IMG/VR virus record: IMGVR_UViG_3300041405_000299
Span: 1-64,000 of that record
Reading direction: 5' to 3' (one strand)
From: a virus
DNA: 64,000 bases
Shown: one piece after another, positions 7,030 to 56,100 of the stretch
Numbering within the stretch: the first letter of the stretch is position 1
How the letters are laid out: every line of letters begins with the position of its first letter
Notes under the pieces: model-generated
The model's input: the letters and a program-made list of their open reading frames with translations, nothing else
What the model was told of the DNA's origin: nothing
The model's database searches: none
Translations under genes and position numbers: made by a program

Positions 7030-7824
7030 ATGCAGAAAGAATCCAGTTTTTTATTCACGGCCCTCGGCGGCCACGTCCTGCAAAACATCGCCGGCGCCAA
7101 GCTCGTTAAATCCCGCGGTTTCCTGGAAGACACCGCTAAAGCTCTGATGTCAGGAGCCCTGGCCCGGAACGCCCGAAAGGGAACCCTGAAAGAAGCGGCT
7201 AAAACGGCAGTGACCAGTGTAGGTGTCCCTGAAGCTATTATGGCACAGCACCGTGCGTTTGAAGCCGGGAGAACGCTGTACGCTCGAGCTCGAGCCATGG
7301 GTATCGACCCGAACAAGCTCACGAAGAAAGAAGCGGCGAAGATGCGAATGGTGGCCGAAGGTCGTCTACCGGATAAGCACTCAACGCCGTTAACCGAACG
7401 GGCGAAGTCTCTTTTAGGTTCCAATACGTTGCCAAAGGGCACGATCAAAGCGGACGCCGTTAAGCAAGTGACCAGCCGGCCAATGGGTAGCCTCTCTCCA
7501 CACTCTCGTGGAGCGATCATTACCGGAAACGCCATTGCGTCCATTGCTGAACCGGGTATCGGTGCCTTAAACGCCGCGAAGTTTGGTACGGAACTGAAGA
7601 GCTTCCAGAATACTCGTCTAGGCAAGTACGTTGAGAAAAACATGGTGCAGAAGCCACTGACCGATGCCTTCCAGTCTGGGGCGGCCGGTAAAGCGATGAA
7701 CAACCTGAAGTCCTTTGGCTACAAGTACGGCGTGAACGGTGCCGTTGGTCAGGCGATCGAAGGGGCTCATAAGCTCGGCTCCAACTCAATGAAGAAGTTG
7801 CCAGGTGGTATAAGTAAGAAGTAA
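7030..7824 (+). CDS. Basic Lys/Ala/Gly-rich protein (264 aa)
   Basis: SD GAGGAG. Low-complexity K/A/G composition. First gene after the tRNA-like leader. Confidence 0.8.
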   Translation: MQKESSFLFTALGGHVLQNIAGAKLVKSRGFLEDTAKALMSGALARNARKGTLKEAAKTAVTSVGVPEAIMAQHRAFEAGRTLYARARAMGIDPNKLTKKEAAKMRMVAEGRLPDKHSTPLTERAKSLLGSNTLPKGTIKADAVKQVTSRPMGSLSPHSRGAIITGNAIASIAEPGIGALNAAKFGTELKSFQNTRLGKYVEKNMVQKPLTDAFQSGAAGKAMNNLKSFGYKYGVNGAVGQAIEGAHKLGSNSMKKLPGGISKK

Positions 7825-7826
7825 CG
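7807..7826 (+). promoter_or_regulatory. Conserved phage promoter-like motif (GGTATAAGTAAGAAGTAACG)
   Basis: Motif family member embedded in the last codons of the 7030..7824 gene. Confidence 0.5.
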
Positions 7827-7837
7827 GAGGATTTACA

Positions 7838-7903
7838 ATGACTGGTATCGCAATCATAGCAATATGCATCGCAATTACTTACTGGTTCTACCGGGGTCGT
7901 TAA
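7838..7903 (+). CDS. 21-aa single-helix mini-protein candidate
   Basis: SD GGAGG 7 nt upstream. Translation is [22 protein letters not shown] terminator follows. Confidence 0.4.
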
Positions 7904-7916
7904 GGCCCCGTTTTTT
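7892..7916 (+). terminator. Intrinsic terminator
   Basis: CGGGGTC-gttaa-GGCCCCG followed by T6. Confidence 0.65.
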
Positions 7917-7926
7917 AGGAGACGTT

Positions 7927-8079
7927 ATGTATAAGCACAACCGAGGAGAGATCAAAGAGAGTGCTGTTAAAGCCATTCTCCATGATCCTCTTTTTAGCCA
8001 GAAAGTGGAACGCCCCAAGAAAGGGAAGGGTTCCTACCGCCGTTCTAAGACTTGGTCAAGCGGGCGCGAGCCTGCTTAA
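7927..8079 (+). CDS. arfA: Alternative ribosome-rescue factor A (ArfA) homolog, 50 aa
   Basis: [46 protein letters not shown] aligns with E. coli ArfA [38 protein letters not shown] (recalled from memory). Confidence 0.8.
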
Positions 8080-8179
8080 CTAACCCTCTCACGTTTCCTT
8101 CACGGATTGCCTTCACGCCGGGTCGCATTGAATTTGCGATGACGCTGTAGTTGTTGGTGAATCGAGCTGGATTGATCAT
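8045..8179 (-). CDS. Antisense 44-aa basic ORF overlapping the arfA 3' end
   Basis: Strong SD GGAGGT 4 nt before the ATG (8179). Translation is [44 protein letters not shown]. This is the C-terminal part of track ORF 8045..8512(-). Confidence 0.4.
8058..8077 (+). promoter_or_regulatory. 3'-terminal hairpin in the arfA-like ORF
   Basis: AAGCGGGC-gcga-GCCTGCTT, 8 bp including one G:U. It ends on the first base of the TAA stop. The position is analogous to the RNase III hairpin of E. coli arfA. Confidence 0.55.
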
Positions 8180-8242
8180 AGTTACCTCCAAATTGATTTT
8201 ATCGTAATGCTCAGGTATAGTCGAGAAAACGGAGGACTCCCT

Positions 8243-8734
8243 ATGCTTGACTACTACATCACTGGCGCCTACTTCAAAGGGGCCGAAGCGATTAAACCTG
8301 CCTTTACCGACTTCACTGATTTCCCCGCATGCTTTTCCGTGATGCAAGATTCTCTTGGCGTGCGTCCCGGTGCCCACATGGCCATGACGTTCATGCTCCT
8401 TGACGAAGAACCTATCGAAGACCGAGACATCACGATCCGTTACGGATGGGGTGGCCACGACGGCCAGATCCTCGCGTCCGTTCTTGATGAAGATGGCGCG
8501 GTGCTTAACCAAGGTTTTGTCATCATTCTGGACGTCAAAACGGGTAAGCTCGAGAGCCGTCGACTAGATGGTCGAACCGACGACGATGCTTTAGATGACG
8601 CTATTAAAATCATCCTAGAATACGGCAACTACATGCTTGCCGGTATCAACTGGGGTGCGTTTCTCCTGCACGAGTATGCGGAGGGGCGGCTCGAACAGTA
8701 CTTTGAAGACGCAATCAACCAGGAGATCCACTGA
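8243..8734 (+). CDS. Acidic hypothetical protein (163 aa)
   Basis: ORF track 8207..8734. The ATG at 8243 follows the SD GGAGG. TGATG overlap with the next gene. Confidence 0.75.
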   Translation: MLDYYITGAYFKGAEAIKPAFTDFTDFPACFSVMQDSLGVRPGAHMAMTFMLLDEEPIEDRDITIRYGWGGHDGQILASVLDEDGAVLNQGFVIILDVKTGKLESRRLDGRTDDDALDDAIKIILEYGNYMLAGINWGAFLLHEYAEGRLEQYFEDAINQEIH

Positions 8735-10509
8735 TGAGTGAAGGTAAAAAGACGCTGCACCAAGCCGCGTCCACCCTTAAGAAAAACCCAAGCCGTATTG
8801 ACCGCTTGGTAAAAGAAGCAGCGATGCGTATCGTTCCCGCTGCCCGTTACGCTACTGGCAATGCCAAGAAGATGGCTGAGCAGGCAATCGCTAAGCTGAA
8901 AGAACCGAAAGGTTTCGGCGGGGCCGACCTGTCAACGAAGAGCTCGAAGTTCTTCAAAGAAGCTAGCGACAAATCAAGAGAAGTCATGGGATCCGGTGCC
9001 ATCGGTGCTGCAGTGACTGGCGGTGCGGCTGCATTGGCAGAGCGTGCTCGTACTAAACGCGTTGTAAGCGGTCACGTGGTTCACCAGCATTACCGTGCCC
9101 TGCGTGCGGATAAAGGCTCAATGGAAGGACGTATGGCTGACACTGCCAAACGTAATCGTCGTTTAGGTGGCCTGGCCGGCCGTAACGCTTCACGTGCAGG
9201 TAAGATCGGTGCGATTGTAGGTGGAGCACTGGGTGCTGCTGCAGCCCTGAAGAAAGAAGCCAGTGACAAGACCCGTGATGCAGCCTTGACAGTAGTCGGG
9301 GCTGGAGCAGGAGCGACCGCAGGCCACTTGGCAGCTCGTATTCGCGGAGAAAGTAAGGTCTTAGACCGCGTAAGCAATGCAACCATGCGTGACTTAAAGT
9401 CAGACCGCTCTATCAGTCATTCGTTGGATCGCCAGTCTACTTACGAACGTCGCGGTGGCAAACTCGTCAGCAAAGCGAAAGGTAAAGCCCGTCTGGTCGG
9501 TGCGGCCATTGGTGCAGCATCTGCTTTAGCTGCGGGTAAGCTCGAAAAGAAAGCTGCTGCTAAGCCGGTGATCCACAAGGGTCAACACTTACTGCCAAAA
9601 GGCGCCCCGATCCCTGCCGGTGCTAAAGACGTGTCACCTAAAGCGGTACTGAAAGGTCGCGTGAACAAAGCCGGTAAGGTTGCGGTAGGTTTGGCGGCAG
9701 GTGCGGCTCTGGCCGGTGCCGTTAAGAACCACCTGGAGAAGAAAGCGGCAAAGAATGACGGCAAGGGTCACCTTTCTGTAAGTGGTGCAACCCTTGCCGG
9801 TGCAGGTTACGCGGCGTCTAAGCGTTTAGGTAAAGACAGTCAGAAAGCCCAGGAAGGTCTGAAGGCCCAGATCAAGCACATCCAGTCTAAAGGTGGACGT
9901 ATCGCCCCGATCGATGTGCGTATGGCGGTTGACTCGTTGAAGAAACCTCTCGCCCGTCGTGCCGGTAAAGCTGCCCTGAAGGGAGGTGCTCTGGGTGCTG
10001 CCGCTGCCGCCGGCCTGAACAAGCTGATGGATAACCACAAGGCCACGGCTCGTAAGAATGCCCGTCTGCAGAAACAAGCCGGCGAAACAGTAGGTTCCCA
10101 AGCCGATCGTGAAATCAACAAAGTCGTTGCCTCTAAGGGTAAAAAGGGGAATACCTCTTTGCAACCCGGAAAGGACAAAGGTCCGTTAAAGAAGCAAGCA
10201 GCAGAAATGATCGAGCGTAACGGCGTGAAGCACCGTAAGGGGACGCCGGGTTCTGCCGCGGCAACCATGGCGGGAATCGCGACGGGTTTGACTGCAGGGA
10301 ATAACGTTGCAGCCTACCGTGCAGCCAAGAAACACGCATTGGGTGAAGTGATTTCCCGCCGTTCCATCCTTAAAGGTGTGCCACAGCAGGCAGTACTCAA
10401 TGCTGCGTACGGGTATGCTTACGGAAGAATCCGTAGCCATTTTCGCAAGAAGCGTGGGGAAGTTGACACGTCACCAGCAGCATTTGCGAAGTTGAAGGCA
10501 GGTAAATAA
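8734..10509 (+). CDS. 591-aa basic protein with at least 8 Gly/Ala-zipper segments separated by Lys/Arg-rich linkers
   Basis: Segments such as GSGAIGAAVTGGAAALA, GKIGAIVGGALGAAAAL and VAVGLAAGAALAGAV. Recurring KKEASDK(S/T)R and LEKKAA linkers. Confidence 0.85.
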   Translation: MSEGKKTLHQAASTLKKNPSRIDRLVKEAAMRIVPAARYATGNAKKMAEQAIAKLKEPKGFGGADLSTKSSKFFKEASDKSREVMGSGAIGAAVTGGAAALAERARTKRVVSGHVVHQHYRALRADKGSMEGRMADTAKRNRRLGGLAGRNASRAGKIGAIVGGALGAAAALKKEASDKTRDAALTVVGAGAGATAGHLAARIRGESKVLDRVSNATMRDLKSDRSISHSLDRQSTYERRGGKLVSKAKGKARLVGAAIGAASALAAGKLEKKAAAKPVIHKGQHLLPKGAPIPAGAKDVSPKAVLKGRVNKAGKVAVGLAAGAALAGAVKNHLEKKAAKNDGKGHLSVSGATLAGAGYAASKRLGKDSQKAQEGLKAQIKHIQSKGGRIAPIDVRMAVDSLKKPLARRAGKAALKGGALGAAAAAGLNKLMDNHKATARKNARLQKQAGETVGSQADREINKVVASKGKKGNTSLQPGKDKGPLKKQAAEMIERNGVKHRKGTPGSAAATMAGIATGLTAGNNVAAYRAAKKHALGEVISRRSILKGVPQQAVLNAAYGYAYGRIRSHFRKKRGEVDTSPAAFAKLKAGK

Positions 10510-11186
10510 TGACCGAGCGCAAAGTCAAGGATAAAGACAAGGCGACTCTGGCAGGGGCGGCTTCGGCCGTCCTCGCTAGCCGGGCACCGAAGAATCTTCT
10601 TGGATATGAGAAGGTCCATCACGGCACGAGTACATCTGCTGCTGAAAGCATTAAGAAAACTGGTCTGAAGAAGTCTTACTCGGGCAAGGGTGTGGCGGCA
10701 AACGATGTGGCAATGGGCCGTGCAACACACGATCAGGTAAAAGGTAAAGTCTATACCTCAACGATGGGTGCTGTAGCCGATGCTCACCGCCCGGGGATCG
10801 GAGAGATGAAAATGGGCCAACGTTTGACGGCTCGCGTTCCGTACCGCAGCAAGAAGCGTTTAGGTGAAGACCATGTGTTTAAGAATATGGTGGATGGCAA
10901 AGATTCCCATACGAATTACGGTAAGGTCCAACGCACCCTGGCGAAGCCTCAGTTGAAGTCGCTTCGGATCTACAAGCACTCGATTCCTTCTCGCTTCATC
11001 GAAGGTAGTCATGACTATGCCGGCCGCAAACAGTTTGCCTCAAAGGGAAACCTTCGTCGCTACCTGTCACAAGCCGGTGGTAAAGCCCGTTTTGCCAAAG
11101 GTGTAGCTGAAGCTGCCGGGGCCGGCGCCGCTGGACTTTACGCTGCAGCCAAAGCTATCAAAGCCCATAAGGATGCCAAGAAATGA
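10509..11186 (+). CDS. Paralog A of an HGTS-motif protein (tentative ADP-ribosyltransferase/Tpt1-like fold)
   Basis: TAATG coupling. LLGYEKVHHGTSTSAAESIKKTGL and GKVYTST resemble the ART/KptA pattern LYHGT...I...GL...VHLS. Gly/Ala-rich C-terminus. Confidence 0.45.
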   Translation: MTERKVKDKDKATLAGAASAVLASRAPKNLLGYEKVHHGTSTSAAESIKKTGLKKSYSGKGVAANDVAMGRATHDQVKGKVYTSTMGAVADAHRPGIGEMKMGQRLTARVPYRSKKRLGEDHVFKNMVDGKDSHTNYGKVQRTLAKPQLKSLRIYKHSIPSRFIEGSHDYAGRKQFASKGNLRRYLSQAGGKARFAKGVAEAAGAGAAGLYAAAKAIKAHKDAKK

Positions 11187-11575
11187 GTCTGTACAAAATT
11201 GCCAAGAGTTTGAACCAGATCAAAGAAGAACGTTCTCACCGTAATCGCCGTCTGGAAGCCGCTCCGTACATTGCTACGGGTGCAGCTGCCGTTGGATCGG
11301 TCGCTCATGATCTTTCCAAGAAGACGGGGAACCCTCGGATGACCATGAAGGGCGGCAAGATGGTCCGTGGAGAACAGCGTAGTTACCATCAGTTCCGGGA
11401 GAAGAGTCCGACCGGGAAGATGAACTACCTGAAAGCTTCCGGTGCTAAAGCCATTCCGCGTGCCCTGGCCGTCGGTGCCGGTACGGCGATCGCCACGAAA
11501 GCCTACAAGTACCTGGCCGAAGAGAAGGCCCGCCGTGAGGAAAAAGCCCGTCGCCGTGAGCTTAAAGGCCATTGA
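11183..11575 (+). CDS. Basic Lys/Ala/Gly-rich protein (130 aa)
   Basis: ATGA coupling. Same compositional family as 7030 and 8734. Confidence 0.8.
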   Translation: MSLYKIAKSLNQIKEERSHRNRRLEAAPYIATGAAAVGSVAHDLSKKTGNPRMTMKGGKMVRGEQRSYHQFREKSPTGKMNYLKASGAKAIPRALAVGAGTAIATKAYKYLAEEKARREEKARRRELKGH

Positions 11576-11626: not shown

Positions 11627-11854
11627 ATGAAAGACCAACACGAAAAGATCAAGGGCTACCGCGATCTGTCCCAAAAAGAAATCGACAAAATGAACGCGAT
11701 CAAAGACGCCGGTAACGCACTGGGTGCTCTGATTGAAGACCTGCAGGGCCTCGAAGGTCTGGACCAACGCTTCATCTCCATCGGTAAAACCGACGTGCAG
11801 AAAGGCCTGGCCATGATCATCCGTGGTATCGCACAGCCTACAACGTTCTGCTAA
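11627..11854 (+). CDS. Hypothetical small protein (75 aa)
   Basis: SD AGGAGA. Translation contains KGYRDLSQKEIDKMNAIKDAGN...GKTDVQKGLAMIIRGIAQPTTF. Confidence 0.75.
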   Translation: MKDQHEKIKGYRDLSQKEIDKMNAIKDAGNALGALIEDLQGLEGLDQRFISIGKTDVQKGLAMIIRGIAQPTTFC

Positions 11855-12015
11855 TGAACGCGTGGGGTTGGGCAACGGTCGTCGTCGCGTTTGCCGTTAT
11901 TGTGTTGATGATTTACGATGACCTTCGGGAAGCCAAGCAGGAGTGTGAAGAGGTGAAATCCTCATACCCATACTGGCTTTCTGCCGCGTTCTGGATCACT
12001 CTGTTTTCTCTCTAA
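11854..12015 (+). CDS. Small membrane protein (53 aa; below the ORF-track cutoff)
   Basis: TAATG coupling. Translation is MNAWGWATVVVAFAVIVLMIY... A terminator follows. Confidence 0.6.
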   Translation: MNAWGWATVVVAFAVIVLMIYDDLREAKQECEEVKSSYPYWLSAAFWITLFSL

Positions 12016-12035
12016 GCTCCTTCGGGAGCTTTTTT
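12015..12035 (+). terminator. Intrinsic terminator (UUCG tetraloop)
   Basis: AGCTCC-ttcg-GGAGCT followed by T5. Confidence 0.75.
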
Positions 12036-12046
12036 CATTTCAGGGG

Positions 12047-12075
12047 TTGACAGCCCGATTGGCCTCGGTTAGGAT
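12047..12075 (+). promoter_or_regulatory. sigma70-like promoter for tRNA island C
   Basis: TTGACA-N17-TAGGAT. Confidence 0.55.
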
Positions 12076-32487: not shown

Positions 32488-32658
32488 ATGACTCAATGTG
32501 TCTACTGTAATCGGGCTGCAGTCGAAGAAGTAAGAGAGCCCTGCGAAGTTAATGGTGTTCGATTCGATCATCTCTATACTCATTGCTCGTGCTGTGATAA
32601 CGACTTCGTTACACCTGAGCAGGACAAAATCAACGAAGCAAATAGGAGCAAACCATGA
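32488..32658 (+). CDS. Zinc-finger mini-protein (56 aa; YgiT/MqsA-N-like CxxC...CxxC)
   Basis: Translation contains MTQCVYCN...HCSCCDNDF. ATGA coupling to the HD hydrolase gene. Confidence 0.5.
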   Translation: MTQCVYCNRAAVEEVREPCEVNGVRFDHLYTHCSCCDNDFVTPEQDKINEANRSKP

Positions 32659-33494
32659 GTACAGCAATCACGGATCCTCAGGAATTTAACAAAGGGGAAT
32701 CCTTCGCTCGTGAGAACCTGCTCGATCGTGTATTCAAATTGGACCAGGACGTTGCCCTGAGTCTGATCAACCGCATCGAGGGTAAAACTTATGCTACTCC
32801 TTCTTTTGAAGCTGGCGTTCATAGTTATTGCCATAAACTACTTGGCCTCTTAGGGATTGAGACTATGACACAGCGTGAAGATACCGTGCGGGATTTCGGC
32901 ATTGCCGGGATGCACGTGCGTTTACAAGCTGCCTATGACTTAGCGAAGAAAGCCCACACGGGGCAGAAGCGTAAGGTCACCGGCGGTGATTACTTTAATG
33001 ATCACGTCCTCCAGGTGGCCCAAGCGGTCTCCCAGTACGTAACAATCCACAACCCATCCGAAGAGGTGATCACCACCCGTCAAACCAACATGATTTGTGC
33101 CGCTTTGCTGCACGACGTGGTGGAAGACACGGACGTGACTCTGGCGGCTATCGAGCATGAGTTTGGCGAGCAGGTTGCCCAGTGGGTCGACGGCTTAACG
33201 CACGCTACCGTCGGTGTTAACCGGGCGGACCGTGAGTACAAGACTCAGCAGAAGCTGATCTCAGCGTCATGGGAAGTGCGGTTGATTAAGTGTTTTGATA
33301 TCATGCACAACGCCCGTGATCTGGCCAATCTGGATCCGGCGTTCGGTGTACGTTGGTATCAGGAGAAGGTAGACTTGATCGAAGCGGAAGGTGGTAAGTT
33401 CTTGGAAGGGATCCCGCCGATTGTGACGGAATCCCTGAGTACTACGTTGAAGCTAGGTCTGCGTTTATCTCAGGCTTTAAGCGCTAAGAAATAG
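32655..33494 (+). CDS. RelA/SpoT-type HD-domain hydrolase (small alarmone hydrolase-like), TAG stop
   Basis: KKAHTGQKRKVTGGDYFNDHVLQVA...AALLHDVVEDTDVT...FGEQVAQWVDGLTH matches the (p)ppGpp hydrolase HD domain. Confidence 0.7.
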   Translation: MSTAITDPQEFNKGESFARENLLDRVFKLDQDVALSLINRIEGKTYATPSFEAGVHSYCHKLLGLLGIETMTQREDTVRDFGIAGMHVRLQAAYDLAKKAHTGQKRKVTGGDYFNDHVLQVAQAVSQYVTIHNPSEEVITTRQTNMICAALLHDVVEDTDVTLAAIEHEFGEQVAQWVDGLTHATVGVNRADREYKTQQKLISASWEVRLIKCFDIMHNARDLANLDPAFGVRWYQEKVDLIEAEGGKFLEGIPPIVTESLSTTLKLGLRLSQALSAKK

Positions 33495-53100: not shown

Positions 53101-56100
53101 TTAACCTAAGCCTAAGTCGAAGTGAACCGGATCGTAGGTAGAGAAGTTCCCACCCCAACGCAATTTCACTCCAAGCGAGTTCGCGACCTGGATAACGTAC
53201 TGGGCAAAGTTCTGCATCACAGCACGGGAAGACGCATGCAAATCGTTACACGGCACCATGTCTACTGCCCATGACGGCGACTTACGGTGACGAGACCCGT
53301 TGCCGGCACCCTGAGCGTAGGACGATGAGTCGTTCTCAAGGGATTGCTGCTTGGCCGATGAGCGATAACCACTGGTGACCACCACTGGACGCGTCTCGAT
53401 GACCTTCATCACGACTTTAATCAAGTCCGGGTGGCAGGTAGCCAGGATCGACTGCGAATTCGCATCCAGTACGCCTACTGAACAACGCTTACCTAGTTTA
53501 GGCAGAACGGTTGGCGTCGCTGGAGCACTCTGAGTGGCTTTATTCTCTTCGCTCGTTACTGCAGTGCCTGGCGTCGGTTGCTGATTCGTCGGACGAACAC
53601 CTTGGTTAACGATTGGGTCCGGCGTCTCTCCGTCAAACTCATAGTCGATGAACGCGGAGGATTCCATGTCACGGCCCCGCAACGTGCTACTTGATTCCGA
53701 TCCCTTGCCGTCATTGACCCACGGACCTTTACGCACTTCCTCAACGGTTGGTGACCCTTGGTTCCACATGTCGATGTCAACGAAGGTTTCTGACAGTACG
53801 CAGTGATCCTGTTCGACGTCCATTAGGGTTGCGATGTTACGGGCCACCAGGTTCAGGTTACCGAGTGTCGTCGTGTAGAGCGTCGGACGGGACGGATCGT
53901 TTACGTACTCCGAACCCCCGATCTCCCAGACGCCCATATTACGCTTCACCGGAATCGGACGACCGGTTGAATAGGACTCGAGGATCGTCGGATCGGCGGC
54001 GCCCACACCCAGAACATCAACGTAGTACTCACAGGCACGCTGGAAGGCCTTGGTGTTGCCGTACATCGACAGGTTCTCATCCATTCGTAACTGAGCGAGC
54101 AACCATGGATAGGTTCCCGGAATGTAGCACGTGGCCAGTTCCGAGAAGGTGTACGCAGAGCTGATCCCGATGTTCGTGCTGGAATAACCGGAAGCATCGA
54201 TCGAGTGGTTTACGCTCGAGCAGAAGCCATGGTAAGACTCTCGCAGCGGTGATGGATCAACCACGTCCATTGGGTAGCCGGGAACGATGAACGGGTTGAA
54301 CACCCCATCGATCACGCCAGAGCGGGCCTGAGAGTAAATGTTCGAATACTCAACGTCCACACCGGTGAAGAACAAGCGTTCATACGCATTGGTTCCGGAC
54401 AGATCTGCATCCCATGGGTTCAGACTCGGGTCTTCCGGGTACAGCTTAAGCCACGCTGCTTTCAGTTTGGCTGCCGTGTCTGCGTCCGCCAAGTCACCCA
54501 CGTTGGCCGAAGGAGATTGCTGAGCCAGAACGGCATACCAGAACGGCAGAGTACCGTCAGCGGTACGTACACCGCTCGCCCACTCGTATTTGCCCGGCGT
54601 TGCTCGCAGTGGCAGCAGTGTCTTCGACAGGTTACCACCGTTTGCCAAGGCTTTACGGACAGAATGTGGGGCAATGAAGTTGTGGCCAAACACGTCGGTC
54701 TGGGCGTTCATGACCGAATCTGCTTGGAACGGCATCGCGTTGTAGATCACACGGGATGGCACGGAGTCCGTACCCAGGTTCACGCTCATGCTTTCATACA
54801 TGTGAGGCAGAATCACGTTACAGATTGGTGAGTAGTAGGCGAACATCTTCGGTTTGAAGACGTGGTCGATTACCTCACGCTTACCTGCAATCCCCAGGAC
54901 CGCCGGTGAGTTCAAGATCACGTGGTCATATTCCACGAGGTTCATAAACTGGTCGACAAACTGCCCAAAGGACGTCACTTCACCGGTCCCGCCGGACATC
55001 AGATCGTTGGACATAATGTGCAGCAACTGTTCAGCCATGGCCCGTGGCATCATGCCGTTCAGGTTACCAGGAATCAGCTTACCGTTACCTGACGCCATCT
55101 CCTCGTTCGACCCTTTAGCTGCTGCCGCATTGGCTGCAATCGACTGGGCGGACGGGAGTGGCGCGTCCAGGAAGAAGGAACGGTCACGAGAGCGACGAGA
55201 TACCAGACCCTGGGATACCGAACCGCCTGCATGCACCCAATCCATGAACGCTGCTGCGGCGCCTTCAGTATTGCCTTCCGTAATCAAACGGACGATCGTT
55301 GAAGGTTGGCCGCTAGCCTGCCACAGTGCTCCATCTTTACCACCGCGGCCGCCGGGCCCAACGTTAAAGGTAAGATCCACGAGAGCGTCAAACTGGCCCT
55401 GAGACAGGGTAAGCCCAAGCTTATTCACCGCATCTTCCGCAGAGCGAATATCCTGGGACAGTAACTTGTCGACTTCCAAGTCGCTTAATGTCTTACCGTC
55501 GTAGGCCGTCTCTGTTTTAGCTACGGCATGACCCACGCCGATCGTAGGCGTACCCACCGCATCTGCTGCGTGAGCAATCTCTTTGCCAGTCTTATCGTCG
55601 TACAGCTTATAACGACGGCCTTCAGAGAATTCAAGGAGCTCTTTCTTGCCGCGGGCAGACATAGACTTCGAACCTACCGTTGGCGTTGGCGTCGTACCTT
55701 TGTTTTCAGCCGTTTGCGTGGTCGTCGGGGCCGGCGTTGGGGCAGTCTTGCCGTCTTTCTGAACGGAACCTTCAATGACAGGATGTCCGGACATGCGGTT
55801 GAAGTAATTCAAACCGATTTCCAGCAGCGGGATGTACATCTTGGTCATGATCGACTTGTCCTGCTGGGTATCCGAGGAGTAAGCCGAGCGTTTCAGAGAG
55901 TTCCACATACCGACGACGATTCCAGGGATCCCCTGAAGACGCCAGTAGTTGTCACTCATGGTCTCTGACAGCACGGAAGTATCCCCGCCGCCCTGCTCGA
56001 TGCTCACGTCACCTTCACGGGGTTCGTGGACGCCGGCCAAGGCTTGTTCGATAGCGAAGACTGACCCGATGTTGTTCCCATCAACCATAATACCGAAAGC

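Follow-up and report, generated by a model that had tools for sequence, protein, structure and literature searches.

The stretch of DNA considered here, called the window, comprises positions 1 to 64,000 of the IMG/VR virus record IMGVR_UViG_3300041405_000299, read as one strand from 5′ to 3′. At positions 7030-11575 of the window lies an operon of strongly basic proteins rich in lysine, alanine and glycine, in part built from glycine-zipper segments that alternate with charged linkers. Counterparts of these proteins are abundant in particle preparations of a cultured relative, Salmonella phage Arash, and one of them is predicted to have an ADP-ribosyltransferase fold. The operon is discussed here as a possible source of internal head proteins that are delivered together with the phage DNA.

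The genes, identified as open reading frames (ORFs), are named A264, B, C591, D225, E130, F75, G53 and H211. The first of them, A264 (7030-7824, +), encodes a basic protein of 264 residues with an isoelectric point (pI) of 10.4. It is followed by a hydrophobic ORF of 21 residues with a GGAGGA Shine-Dalgarno motif (7838-7903, +), a possible but uncertain gene, and by the gene of the alternative ribosome-rescue factor A (ArfA; 7927-8079, +; 50 residues), assigned by Pfam PF03889 with E = 1.2e-19. B (8243-8734, +, in an ORF open from 8207) encodes an acidic protein of 163-175 residues (pI about 4.4), and C591 (8734-10509, +) a modular basic protein of 591 residues with a net charge of +79. Next come D225 (10509-11186, +; 225 residues), the protein with the predicted ADP-ribosyltransferase fold, and E130 (11183-11575, +), a small basic protein of 130 residues. 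The unit continues with F75 (11627-11854, +), a 75-residue protein with an Acb2/Tad1 hairpin domain (Pfam PF24729, E = 1.1e-14), and ends with G53 (11854-12015, +), a small hydrophobic protein of 53 residues. A paralogue of D225, the accessory gene H211 (15564-16199, +; 211 residues), lies downstream and carries the motifs RHGTS and RGKVHVT.

The gene junctions are TGATG, TAATG and ATGA overlaps, which is the arrangement of translational coupling, and a Shine-Dalgarno-like motif stands in front of every gene of the block. ArfA probably starts at an internal methionine of a 71-residue ORF. In B, a GGAGGA precedes Met13 at 8243, the resulting length agrees with that of the orthologue, and the 18-nt context AACGGAGGAnnnnnnATG of the 21-residue ORF is repeated before this probable start. 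B is translationally coupled to C591; these two are the fastest-diverging genes of the block, with B ahead of C591. After G53 the unit ends in a strong hairpin of the terminator type (12014-12031), beyond which lies a promoter-like site (12047-12075). Another hairpin, which has a T-run (7892-7910), overlaps the end of the 21-residue ORF and runs straight into the Shine-Dalgarno motif of arfA. A cluster of 25 tRNA genes surrounds the whole block, and a tRNA-like gene (6925-7000, +) ends 29 nt upstream of A264. A preliminary description of this DNA had reported the ORFs of 264, 591 and 130 residues and the three types of junction; the ORFs are real, and the junctions are as it described them. 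It had left out the 21-residue hydrophobic ORF, the ArfA gene, the acidic B, the Acb2/Tad1-like gene and the ADP-ribosyltransferase fold of the proteins with the HGTS motif.

Among 50,697 phage records, the sole cultured relative is Salmonella phage Arash, a 180.8-kb 'orphan' myovirus (PMC10585845). The block in the window is syntenic with Arash gp100 to gp94. A264 is the orthologue of gp100 (74.5% identity), ArfA of gp99 (83%), B of gp98 (32%), C591 of gp97 (40%), D225 of gp96 (65%) and E130 of gp95 (58%), and F75 corresponds to gp94 (83%). The order A, ArfA, acidic B, C, D, E, Acb2-like is common to the window, Arash and three metagenomic loci (L002, L003 and L004), all three of which have a 47-residue ArfA gene at the matching position; ArfA keeps its place in every related locus. 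A divergent version of the block is present on a 175-kb IMG/VR contig (L011). F75 shares its transcription unit with the basic proteins, and the position of the Acb2/Tad1 gene is kept in L002, L003, L004 and L011. Proteins of the Acb2/Tad1 family are cyclic-nucleotide sponges that counter the CBASS and Thoeris defence systems. The synteny also corrects the annotation of Arash, in which gp99 is ArfA and not 'ribosomal protein L2', the 'hypothetical' gp94 is Acb2/Tad1-like and gp96 has the predicted ADP-ribosyltransferase fold.

Further relatives were found in metagenomes. A metagenomic contig of 172,104 bp encodes proteins identical to C591 and A264. The homologues fall into 58 clusters (D family), 31 clusters (C) and 22 clusters (A), and the long contigs among their sources reach 182 kb. 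The 22 clusters of A264 homologues (62-100% identity, 254-264 residues) all come from metagenome assemblies or genome records; the exceptions in length are three sequences of 156-202 residues on short contigs. The scan of IMG/VR with the D family found six loci only, five on contigs of 175-182 kb and one on a contig of 40.6 kb. The nucleotide search of the region against the 50,697 phage records gave no match, and the tblastn search of the phage records found Arash only for C591 and D225 and nothing for H211. Pfam, PHROGs and NCBIfam gave nothing significant for six proteins of the block, and the PDB sequence searches nothing for A264, the C family, B (175 residues) and E130. The preliminary description had not recognised the family of the basic proteins, and the searches of these four resources likewise brought up no relative and no homology to a characterised family. 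The protein families thus appear confined to Arash-like or short metagenomic contigs, no relatives having turned up beyond them. The Arash-like clade consists of phages of about 172-182 kb, widespread in metagenomes, with one cultured member.

The highly basic Lys/Ala/Gly composition noted at the outset was borne out (pI 10.4-10.9), with values of 10.9 for C591, 10.35 for D225, 10.6 for E130 and 10.7 for H211 beside that of A264. In C591, alanine makes up 19.6%, lysine 12.7% and glycine 12.2% of the residues. Cysteine is missing from all five proteins, and their single tryptophan is in H211. Eight uncharged Gly/Ala-rich runs of 12-19 residues each were counted in C591, often paired, with short Lys-rich loops between them. 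Shuffled sequences of the same composition contain 0.74 ± 0.81 such runs, and none of 2000 reaches eight. D225, E130 and H211 have two runs each, one near each terminus (shuffle p = 0.011, 0.0005 and 0.0035, respectively). A264 has no uncharged run of at least 12 residues; although basic and rich in Ala and Gly, it therefore lacks the alternating modules and represents a different kind of protein. The preliminary description had assigned alternating modules to all three ORFs and at least eight small-residue segments to the largest. The count is right for C591 and the pattern recurs in miniature in E130, as it does in D225 and H211, while the 264-residue protein does not share it. The linkers described as recurring, KKEASDK(S/T)R and LEKKAA, are each present in two copies, the former as (F/K)KEASDK(S/T)R.

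The zipper pattern of C591 is conserved as well as frequent. The protein holds 18 Gly-rich zipper matches, and both the GxxxGxxxG of segment 2 (G159, G163, G167) and the EKKA after segment 5 (K336, K337, A338) are invariant among 23 C-family homologues. Such invariance indicates a pattern under selection and not mere low complexity. The modules do not form clear tandem sequence repeats, and a recent repeat origin was rejected: the best ungapped match of one module to another scores 55, a marginal value given that shuffled sequences average 39 and reach 57 at most, and the DNA repeats in the gene are short (14-27 nt). Homology between the Gly/Ala termini of D225, E130 or H211 and the C591 modules is unproven, since their local alignments (z = 1.1-2.8) score as composition predicts; the two HGTS paralogs, D225 and H211, alone match each other (z = 6). 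The earlier statement that these paralogs carry the same kind of terminal segments is thus correct for the two runs near their termini, and the likeness of these runs to the C591 segments is only compositional.

Elsewhere in the window, Gly/Ala segments are carried only by two large minus-strand proteins (53101-56616 and 58872-62213) and by a 468-residue protein (57267-58673). The first of the large proteins (1171 residues, −) contains a phage lysozyme domain (PF00959, E = 4.7e-25) and is probably the counterpart of Arash gp8, annotated as 'cell wall hydrolase, structural protein'. The second (1113 residues, −) has one Gly-rich uncharged segment of 23 residues.

The C family ranges in length from 215 to 1012 residues. 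Four regions are distinguished in C591: a conserved N-terminal part (residues 1-75), an array of Gly/Ala zippers and Lys-rich junctions (80-270), a conserved central helical part (275-450) and a C-terminal module (485-591). The array is variable within the family, and its unit reads [R/K]xAGKxGAxxGGxxGAxxx followed by (L)KKEA or LEKKA. The central region holds the almost invariant KDVSPKAV. The C-terminal module, present in C591 as one copy of about 100 residues (nt 10186-10509), follows the pattern LKKQAAEMIxxxGxxxRKGTxxSAAxxM ... G..YG..R...R..RGE ... F..LK and occurs in tandem in other members, with no copy in Arash, one in the window, two in L003 and three in L002. The AlphaFold2 model of C591, based on 23 homologues, has a mean predicted local distance difference test score (pLDDT) of 51, with residues 55-344 below 50. 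Two long helices are predicted at residues 350-450 (pLDDT about 70-78), and the C-terminal module (490-591) is modelled as a beta-hairpin with two helices (pLDDT about 80). A Foldseek search of the model against the PDB reached E = 3.3 at best. The profile of the C-terminal module found 19 matches among 1.84 billion cluster representatives, 18 strong and one borderline, and linked the module to no characterised family. The identifiable strong matches are C591-family members, and the borderline one is a stand-alone protein of 104 residues. Stand-alone proteins of about 100 residues that consist of one module were also noticed in L011 (6888-7193, +) and in P0125 (MDNVE.LVKVARELK.NE+.GTVG...). 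Therefore, the C-terminal module of C591 also exists as an independent gene in divergent members of the clade. The KKEA and LEKKA junctions were considered as prohead-protease sites, which would make C591 a polyprotein. The prohead-protease consensus is L/I-x-E in T4 and S/A/G-x-E in phiKZ, and the misfit of the junctions to both leaves this idea as speculation.

E130 repeats the general plan on a small scale, with the leader MSLYKIAKSLNQIKEE, a Gly/Ala helix, a short core, a second Gly/Ala helix and a tail rich in arginine, lysine and glutamate. Its orthologue in L003 is enlarged to 222 residues. The leader, of the form MSLxxIAxxLxxxxEE, is found on E130 and gp95, and in the divergent L011 on C-like and D-like proteins; the rest of the window lacks it, as does the 50-kb late region of Arash. 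In another homologue, P0074, a C body is fused to an E-type C-terminus, and the H-type protein of L003 is a tandem double ADP-ribosyltransferase domain joined by a Gly/Ala helix and LEKKA. The members of the operon thus exchange elements by fusion, tandem joining and leader swaps. The preliminary description had proposed a shared targeting or assembly signal. Such a signal is possible: the terminal segments have an architecture in common but no demonstrable homology, and the leader recurs on different operon members in different members of the clade. It is an attractive but improbable idea that the unit of leader, Gly/Ala helix, cargo, Gly/Ala helix and basic tail is a new portable module for the loading of cargo into phage heads.

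The zipper pattern resembles membrane glycine zippers. The energy of membrane insertion was calculated over 19-residue windows with the Hessa biological hydrophobicity scale. C591 has the lowest value, +4.0 kcal/mol, and no window of the other proteins falls below +7.5 kcal/mol; the highest Kyte-Doolittle means are 0.9-1.5 (maximum 1.46). For three small nearby ORFs that look like true membrane proteins, the energies are −0.7 to −2.4 kcal/mol and the Kyte-Doolittle means 2.2-2.6. Classical transmembrane helices were therefore rejected, the segments being too short and too polar for predicted insertion. A glycine-zipper membrane domain (PF13436 and relatives; Romo1) was rejected too, as no profile match exceeds the threshold: ETRAMP is matched by 6 of 23 C-family members, Romo1 by 4 and Gly-zipper_OmpA by 2, with best E-values of 0.016-0.07. 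The Gly/Ala segments are probably not transmembrane in the classical sense, and oligomeric insertion after ejection is possible.

A related explanation of the operon is that its products are membrane-active glycine-zipper proteins which oligomerise in the inner membrane of the host. Once ejected, they would form a conduit for the DNA or remodel the membrane where it enters; alternatively, when newly made in the cell, they would depolarise the membrane or exclude superinfecting phages. The invariance of G159, G163 and G167, the number of zipper matches, the sub-threshold resemblance to ETRAMP, Romo1 and Gly-zipper_OmpA and the pairing of segments around Lys-rich loops agree with such a role. 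It is nevertheless rather unlikely, given that the segments span only 12-19 residues with charge on both flanks, that their insertion costs at least +4.0 kcal/mol and that every Pfam match is below threshold; moreover, the hundreds of copies per particle suggested by the Arash spectra described below would be atypical for channel formers.

The AlphaFold2 model of D225, calculated from an alignment of 26 sequences, has a pLDDT of 81, with residues 30-200 above 85. The Gly/Ala helices at residues 4-25 and 191-223 are modelled with low confidence, and the C-terminal tail is Lys-rich. When the model was compared with the PDB by Foldseek, the first 17 matches were all ADP-ribosyltransferases (among them the pertussis-like PltA and PltC, the Rhs toxins TreTu/TreX, KptA, pertussis toxin S1 and Arr), with a probability of up to 0.98, a best E of 6.8e-3 and a template-modelling score (TM-score) of 0.3-0.5. 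The viral library gave a PARP catalytic-domain protein (probability 1.00), PolyVal ADP-ribosyltransferases, a phage RNA 2′-phosphotransferase and a head-morphogenesis fusion. In the alignment of the D family, H38, G39 and T40 are invariant in all 26 sequences and close the strand 33-40, which a helix follows; they correspond to the NAD-binding motif of the superfamily (H or R, then G and S/T, where strand 1 ends). V-[Y/F/H]-T, a candidate for the second catalytic position (Y or S-T-S), lies on the strand 81-84, and D121 and H157 are invariant as well. D225 and H211 are accordingly regarded as proteins of the H-G-T type with the ADP-ribosyltransferase fold (a split beta-sheet core), an assignment with consistent support of moderate strength. 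D225 may be catalytically competent. The T4 Alt/VIP2-type (R-S-E) class was rejected, because the motif is H-G-T and not R and no match was found in Pfam, PHROG or NCBIfam.

H211 shares 30% identity with Arash gp96 and has an architecture like that of D225. The gene is absent from Arash, where gp83 abuts gp82, occurs singly in L002 and adjoins a D-like gene downstream in L011. Directly downstream of H211 in the window, a DUF1353 protein is encoded (16192-16536, +; PF07087, E = 6.3e-28), whose Arash orthologue gp82 is listed in the particle proteome with 103 spectra.

The resemblance of the D family to RNA 2′-phosphotransferases suggests a different explanation, in which the operon is a module for translation or RNA repair. 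D225 and H211 would be Tpt1/KptA-like NAD+-dependent phosphotransferases that act on the ends of damaged tRNA or RNA. Binding of tRNA or ribosomes would fall to the basic proteins, in cooperation with the flanking tRNA genes, ArfA and the phage's RNA ligases. In the PDB sequence search, the D-family profile matched Tpt1 best (E = 0.012), from two short non-collinear stretches, and the alignment at the HGT motif reads VhHGTs..aa.sIkktGL against YHGTarrfvksIkekGL. H211 carries RGKVHVT, which resembles the RxxVHLS of Tpt1. KptA and the phage RNA 2′-phosphotransferase are among the fold matches, the operon lies in the cluster of 25 tRNA genes and includes ArfA, and Arash encodes two RNA ligases. 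A phage KptA has been linked to tRNA repair (PMC9503650). On the other side, membership of D225 and H211 in the Tpt1/KptA family (PF01885) was rejected, since hhalign against E. coli KptA covers 19 columns with a probability of 5.9% and PF01885 matches 1 of 26 D-family members, below threshold (E = 0.026). D225 also lacks the N-terminal RNA-binding lobe of Tpt1, which carries catalytic Arg/His residues: only a Gly/Ala helix of low confidence precedes its core, which begins near residue 30. As such a module would, in addition, leave the abundance of these proteins in particles unexplained, the reading is very improbable.

This abundance comes from the published proteome of Arash, for which particles were separated in a 0-45% sucrose gradient, pelleted and analysed by liquid chromatography-mass spectrometry; the published spectral counts were divided here by protein length (PMC10585845). 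The preliminary description had named virion proteomics as a way to see whether the proteins are packaged, and gp95, gp96, gp97 and gp100 are indeed abundant in these particles, at 1.8-3.6 spectra per residue. The values are 816 spectra (3.63 per residue) for gp96, 406 (3.17) for gp95, 1060 (2.41) for gp97 and 471 (1.83) for gp100. For comparison, the major capsid protein (307 residues) gives 1333 spectra (4.34 per residue), the major tail protein 406 (1.43) and the 1525-residue 'RNA polymerase beta' 3516 (2.31). The Acb2-like gp94, the acidic gp98 and the ArfA-like gp99 are not listed in the particle proteome, even though gp98 is coupled to gp97. Such selective detection within one operon argues against a plain carry-over of whatever is highly expressed. 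The expression of the Arash orthologues and their abundance in the particle fraction are established, and this removes the objection, raised beforehand, that the genes might not be expressed at all.

An explanation that takes the abundance into account without packaging is that the proteins are intracellular nucleic-acid binders or condensate formers, made early and in large amounts, which coat phage DNA or RNA and contaminate the particles by sticking to them. The context of the genes is of the early type, a terminator-bounded unit that includes the ArfA and Acb2-like genes and is surrounded by tRNAs, and the Arash proteome is very inclusive, with many replication enzymes in it. About 60% of C591 is of low confidence in AlphaFold2, as expected for disordered polycations, and one member of the D family weakly matches the basic nucleoprotein family DVNP (E = 0.0049). 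Against it speak the per-residue spectra, which come close to those of the major capsid protein although gp94, gp98 and gp99 from the same transcript are missing, and no DNA- or RNA-binding domain was recognised by Pfam, PHROG or NCBIfam. The explanation is therefore possible but on the unlikely side.

The reading put forward here is that the operon encodes clade-specific, abundant internal or ejection proteins of the head, delivered with the DNA in the manner of the T4 internal proteins and Alt. It is held tentatively, as a real possibility with a chance somewhat below even. Several observations speak for it: the window, Arash, L002 and L003/L004 agree in gene order; gp95, gp96, gp97 and gp100 approach the major capsid protein in spectra per residue, and detection within the operon is selective; D225 has the predicted ADP-ribosyltransferase fold and the invariant HGT; and the proteins are strongly basic and Cys-free, with Gly/Ala segments for which no transmembrane insertion is predicted. 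The variable number of modules (C proteins of 215-1012 residues, the C-terminal module in 0-3 copies, the tandem transferase fusion) would fit non-catalytic filler or carrier proteins, or proteins engaged in an arms race. ADP-ribosyltransferases are reported to be commonly packaged in the heads of myoviruses (PMC9503650). In T4, three basic internal proteins (about 360 copies each) and Alt (about 40 copies) are incorporated in the scaffolding core, and all are injected (PMC9958956).

In the packaged-protein model, C591, E130 and probably A264 would be polycationic internal proteins. Their Lys/Arg-rich junctions could bind the packaged DNA electrostatically, and the conserved small-residue helices of the GxxxG type could pack on each other and so promote self-association of the proteins. 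D225 and H211 would be the enzymatic cargo, each with its transferase-fold domain between two Gly/Ala helices, and would act on host or phage targets on meeting cytoplasmic NAD+. The acidic B might serve as a chaperone or partner that is not packaged, escorting C591 before assembly and staying outside the particle.

Several observations weigh against this reading. Sticky polycations could co-sediment with particles or free DNA, or adhere to capsids. The particle proteome lists 116 of 252 Arash proteins, including ribonucleotide reductases, primase, ligase and helicases, and the authors of the Arash study themselves allow for carry-over or contamination by abundant proteins (PMC10585845). No capsid-targeting sequence or maturation-protease site was recognised in the operon proteins, and the peptide coverage of gp95 is 99%, which gives no sign of N-terminal processing. 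The neighbours of the operon are tRNA genes, and it seems to share a transcript with ArfA and the Acb2-like gene, which have functions of the early type; the head genes are elsewhere. The preliminary description had placed the genes in the early or accessory arm, outside the virion module. The Foldseek matches of D225 are weak overall (best E = 2e-3 to 7e-3, TM-score 0.3-0.6), and the glutamate of FIEG, a candidate for the third catalytic position (E/Q/D), is not conserved, several members of the family having V, A, K or G there.

A more far-reaching version of the proposal would be a system of genome coating and release. The zipper polycations would condense or coat the DNA in the head and enter the cell with it as a protective coacervate. 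The transferases, silent in the NAD+-free capsid and activated by NAD+ after entry, would set off uncoating or takeover through ADP-ribosylation of the coat or of host factors. Such a process would be a phage analogue of the PARP-driven loosening of chromatin; it is improbable. As for the four options between which the preliminary description had made no choice (membrane-active, condensate-forming, nucleic-acid-coating or packaged internal proteins), the packaged one gains support from the Arash particles and the classical membrane one is weakened. As a whole, its observation is partly confirmed and its interpretation partly supported.

If the proteins are truly packaged, the Arash-like phages contain, in quantity, internal proteins of a fast-evolving class not described before, and one or two transferase-fold effectors beside them. 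This would be a second, sequence-unrelated case of the T4 strategy that combines internal proteins with Alt, and it would offer a candidate modular packaging tag for the delivery of cargo from phage heads, as well as a new ADP-ribosyltransferase subfamily. Even if unpackaged, they rank with the proteins that the phage expresses most strongly, and their alternation of zippers and polycationic stretches is unusual.

Some features of the surrounding tRNA cluster were noted in passing. For the tRNA-like genes at 4502-4575 (+) and 6925-7000 (+), ARAGORN gives four-base anticodons (agtg and caaa, respectively) and no amino-acid identity; these may be tRNAs that act like frameshift suppressors, tRNAs whose loops are unusual, or miscalls. 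The tRNA at 16575-16649 (+), labelled 'Pyl' by ARAGORN, has the anticodon CUA of an amber suppressor. TAG is the rarest stop codon of the window and ends 10 of 85 greedily chosen ORFs, most of them spurious-looking antisense ORFs; the plausible genes that end in TAG lie at 18260-19024 and 32655-33494.

The closest known parallel is formed by the T4 internal proteins IPI, IPII and IPIII with Alt, that is, basic proteins in hundreds of copies and an ADP-ribosyltransferase, carried in the head and injected (PMC9958956; PMC9503650). The Arash orthologues are similarly abundant in particles, and one of them has the ADP-ribosyltransferase fold; the head location is here a candidate one. The operon proteins differ in that they show no sequence or profile similarity to the T4 proteins and no recognised targeting sequence or protease site of the T4 type. 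T4 Alt belongs to the R-S-E class, whereas D225 has the H-G-T motif, and T4 has no counterpart to the Gly/Ala-zipper modular architecture with its variable number of modules. A second parallel is provided by the head-packaged ADP-ribosyltransferases of polyvalent or MuF-fused phage proteins (work of Iyer, Burroughs, Aravind and colleagues), which are virion-delivered effectors of myoviruses (PMC5512222, PMC9503650); a PolyVal ADP-ribosyltransferase and a protein with a head morphogenesis domain are among the structural matches of D225. Unlike these, D225 and H211 are small and stand-alone, and have Gly/Ala helices and Lys-rich tails in place of a MuF/portal fusion.

Other known systems share single traits with the operon. 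D225 and H211 have hHGT...IKKxGL in common with Tpt1/KptA, and H211 also R-x-K-V-H-V-T, but only 19-23 residues can be aligned with the D family, the N-terminal RNA lobe is absent and the Pfam match is sub-threshold. Romo1, Gly-zipper_OmpA/YMGG and ETRAMP resemble the C family in their GxxxGxxxG small-residue runs beside basic residues, whereas the C591 segments are short and polar and are repeated up to at least eight times in a protein of charge +79. The ejection or inner-body proteins of the giant phages phiKZ and SPN3US and the ejection proteins of P22, T7 and N4 are likewise poorly conserved, partly paralogous internal proteins abundant in the virion (PMC5694885, PMC8954989); no homology to them was detected, the Arash-like phages form a separate orphan clade, and the genes lie here in a tRNA and accessory region. 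Basic internal proteins together with a packaged ADP-ribosyltransferase are thus of a known kind. New are the protein families themselves, the modular architecture of zippers and polycations, the variable number of modules and the H-G-T enzyme between Gly/Ala helices, all confined to an orphan phage clade.

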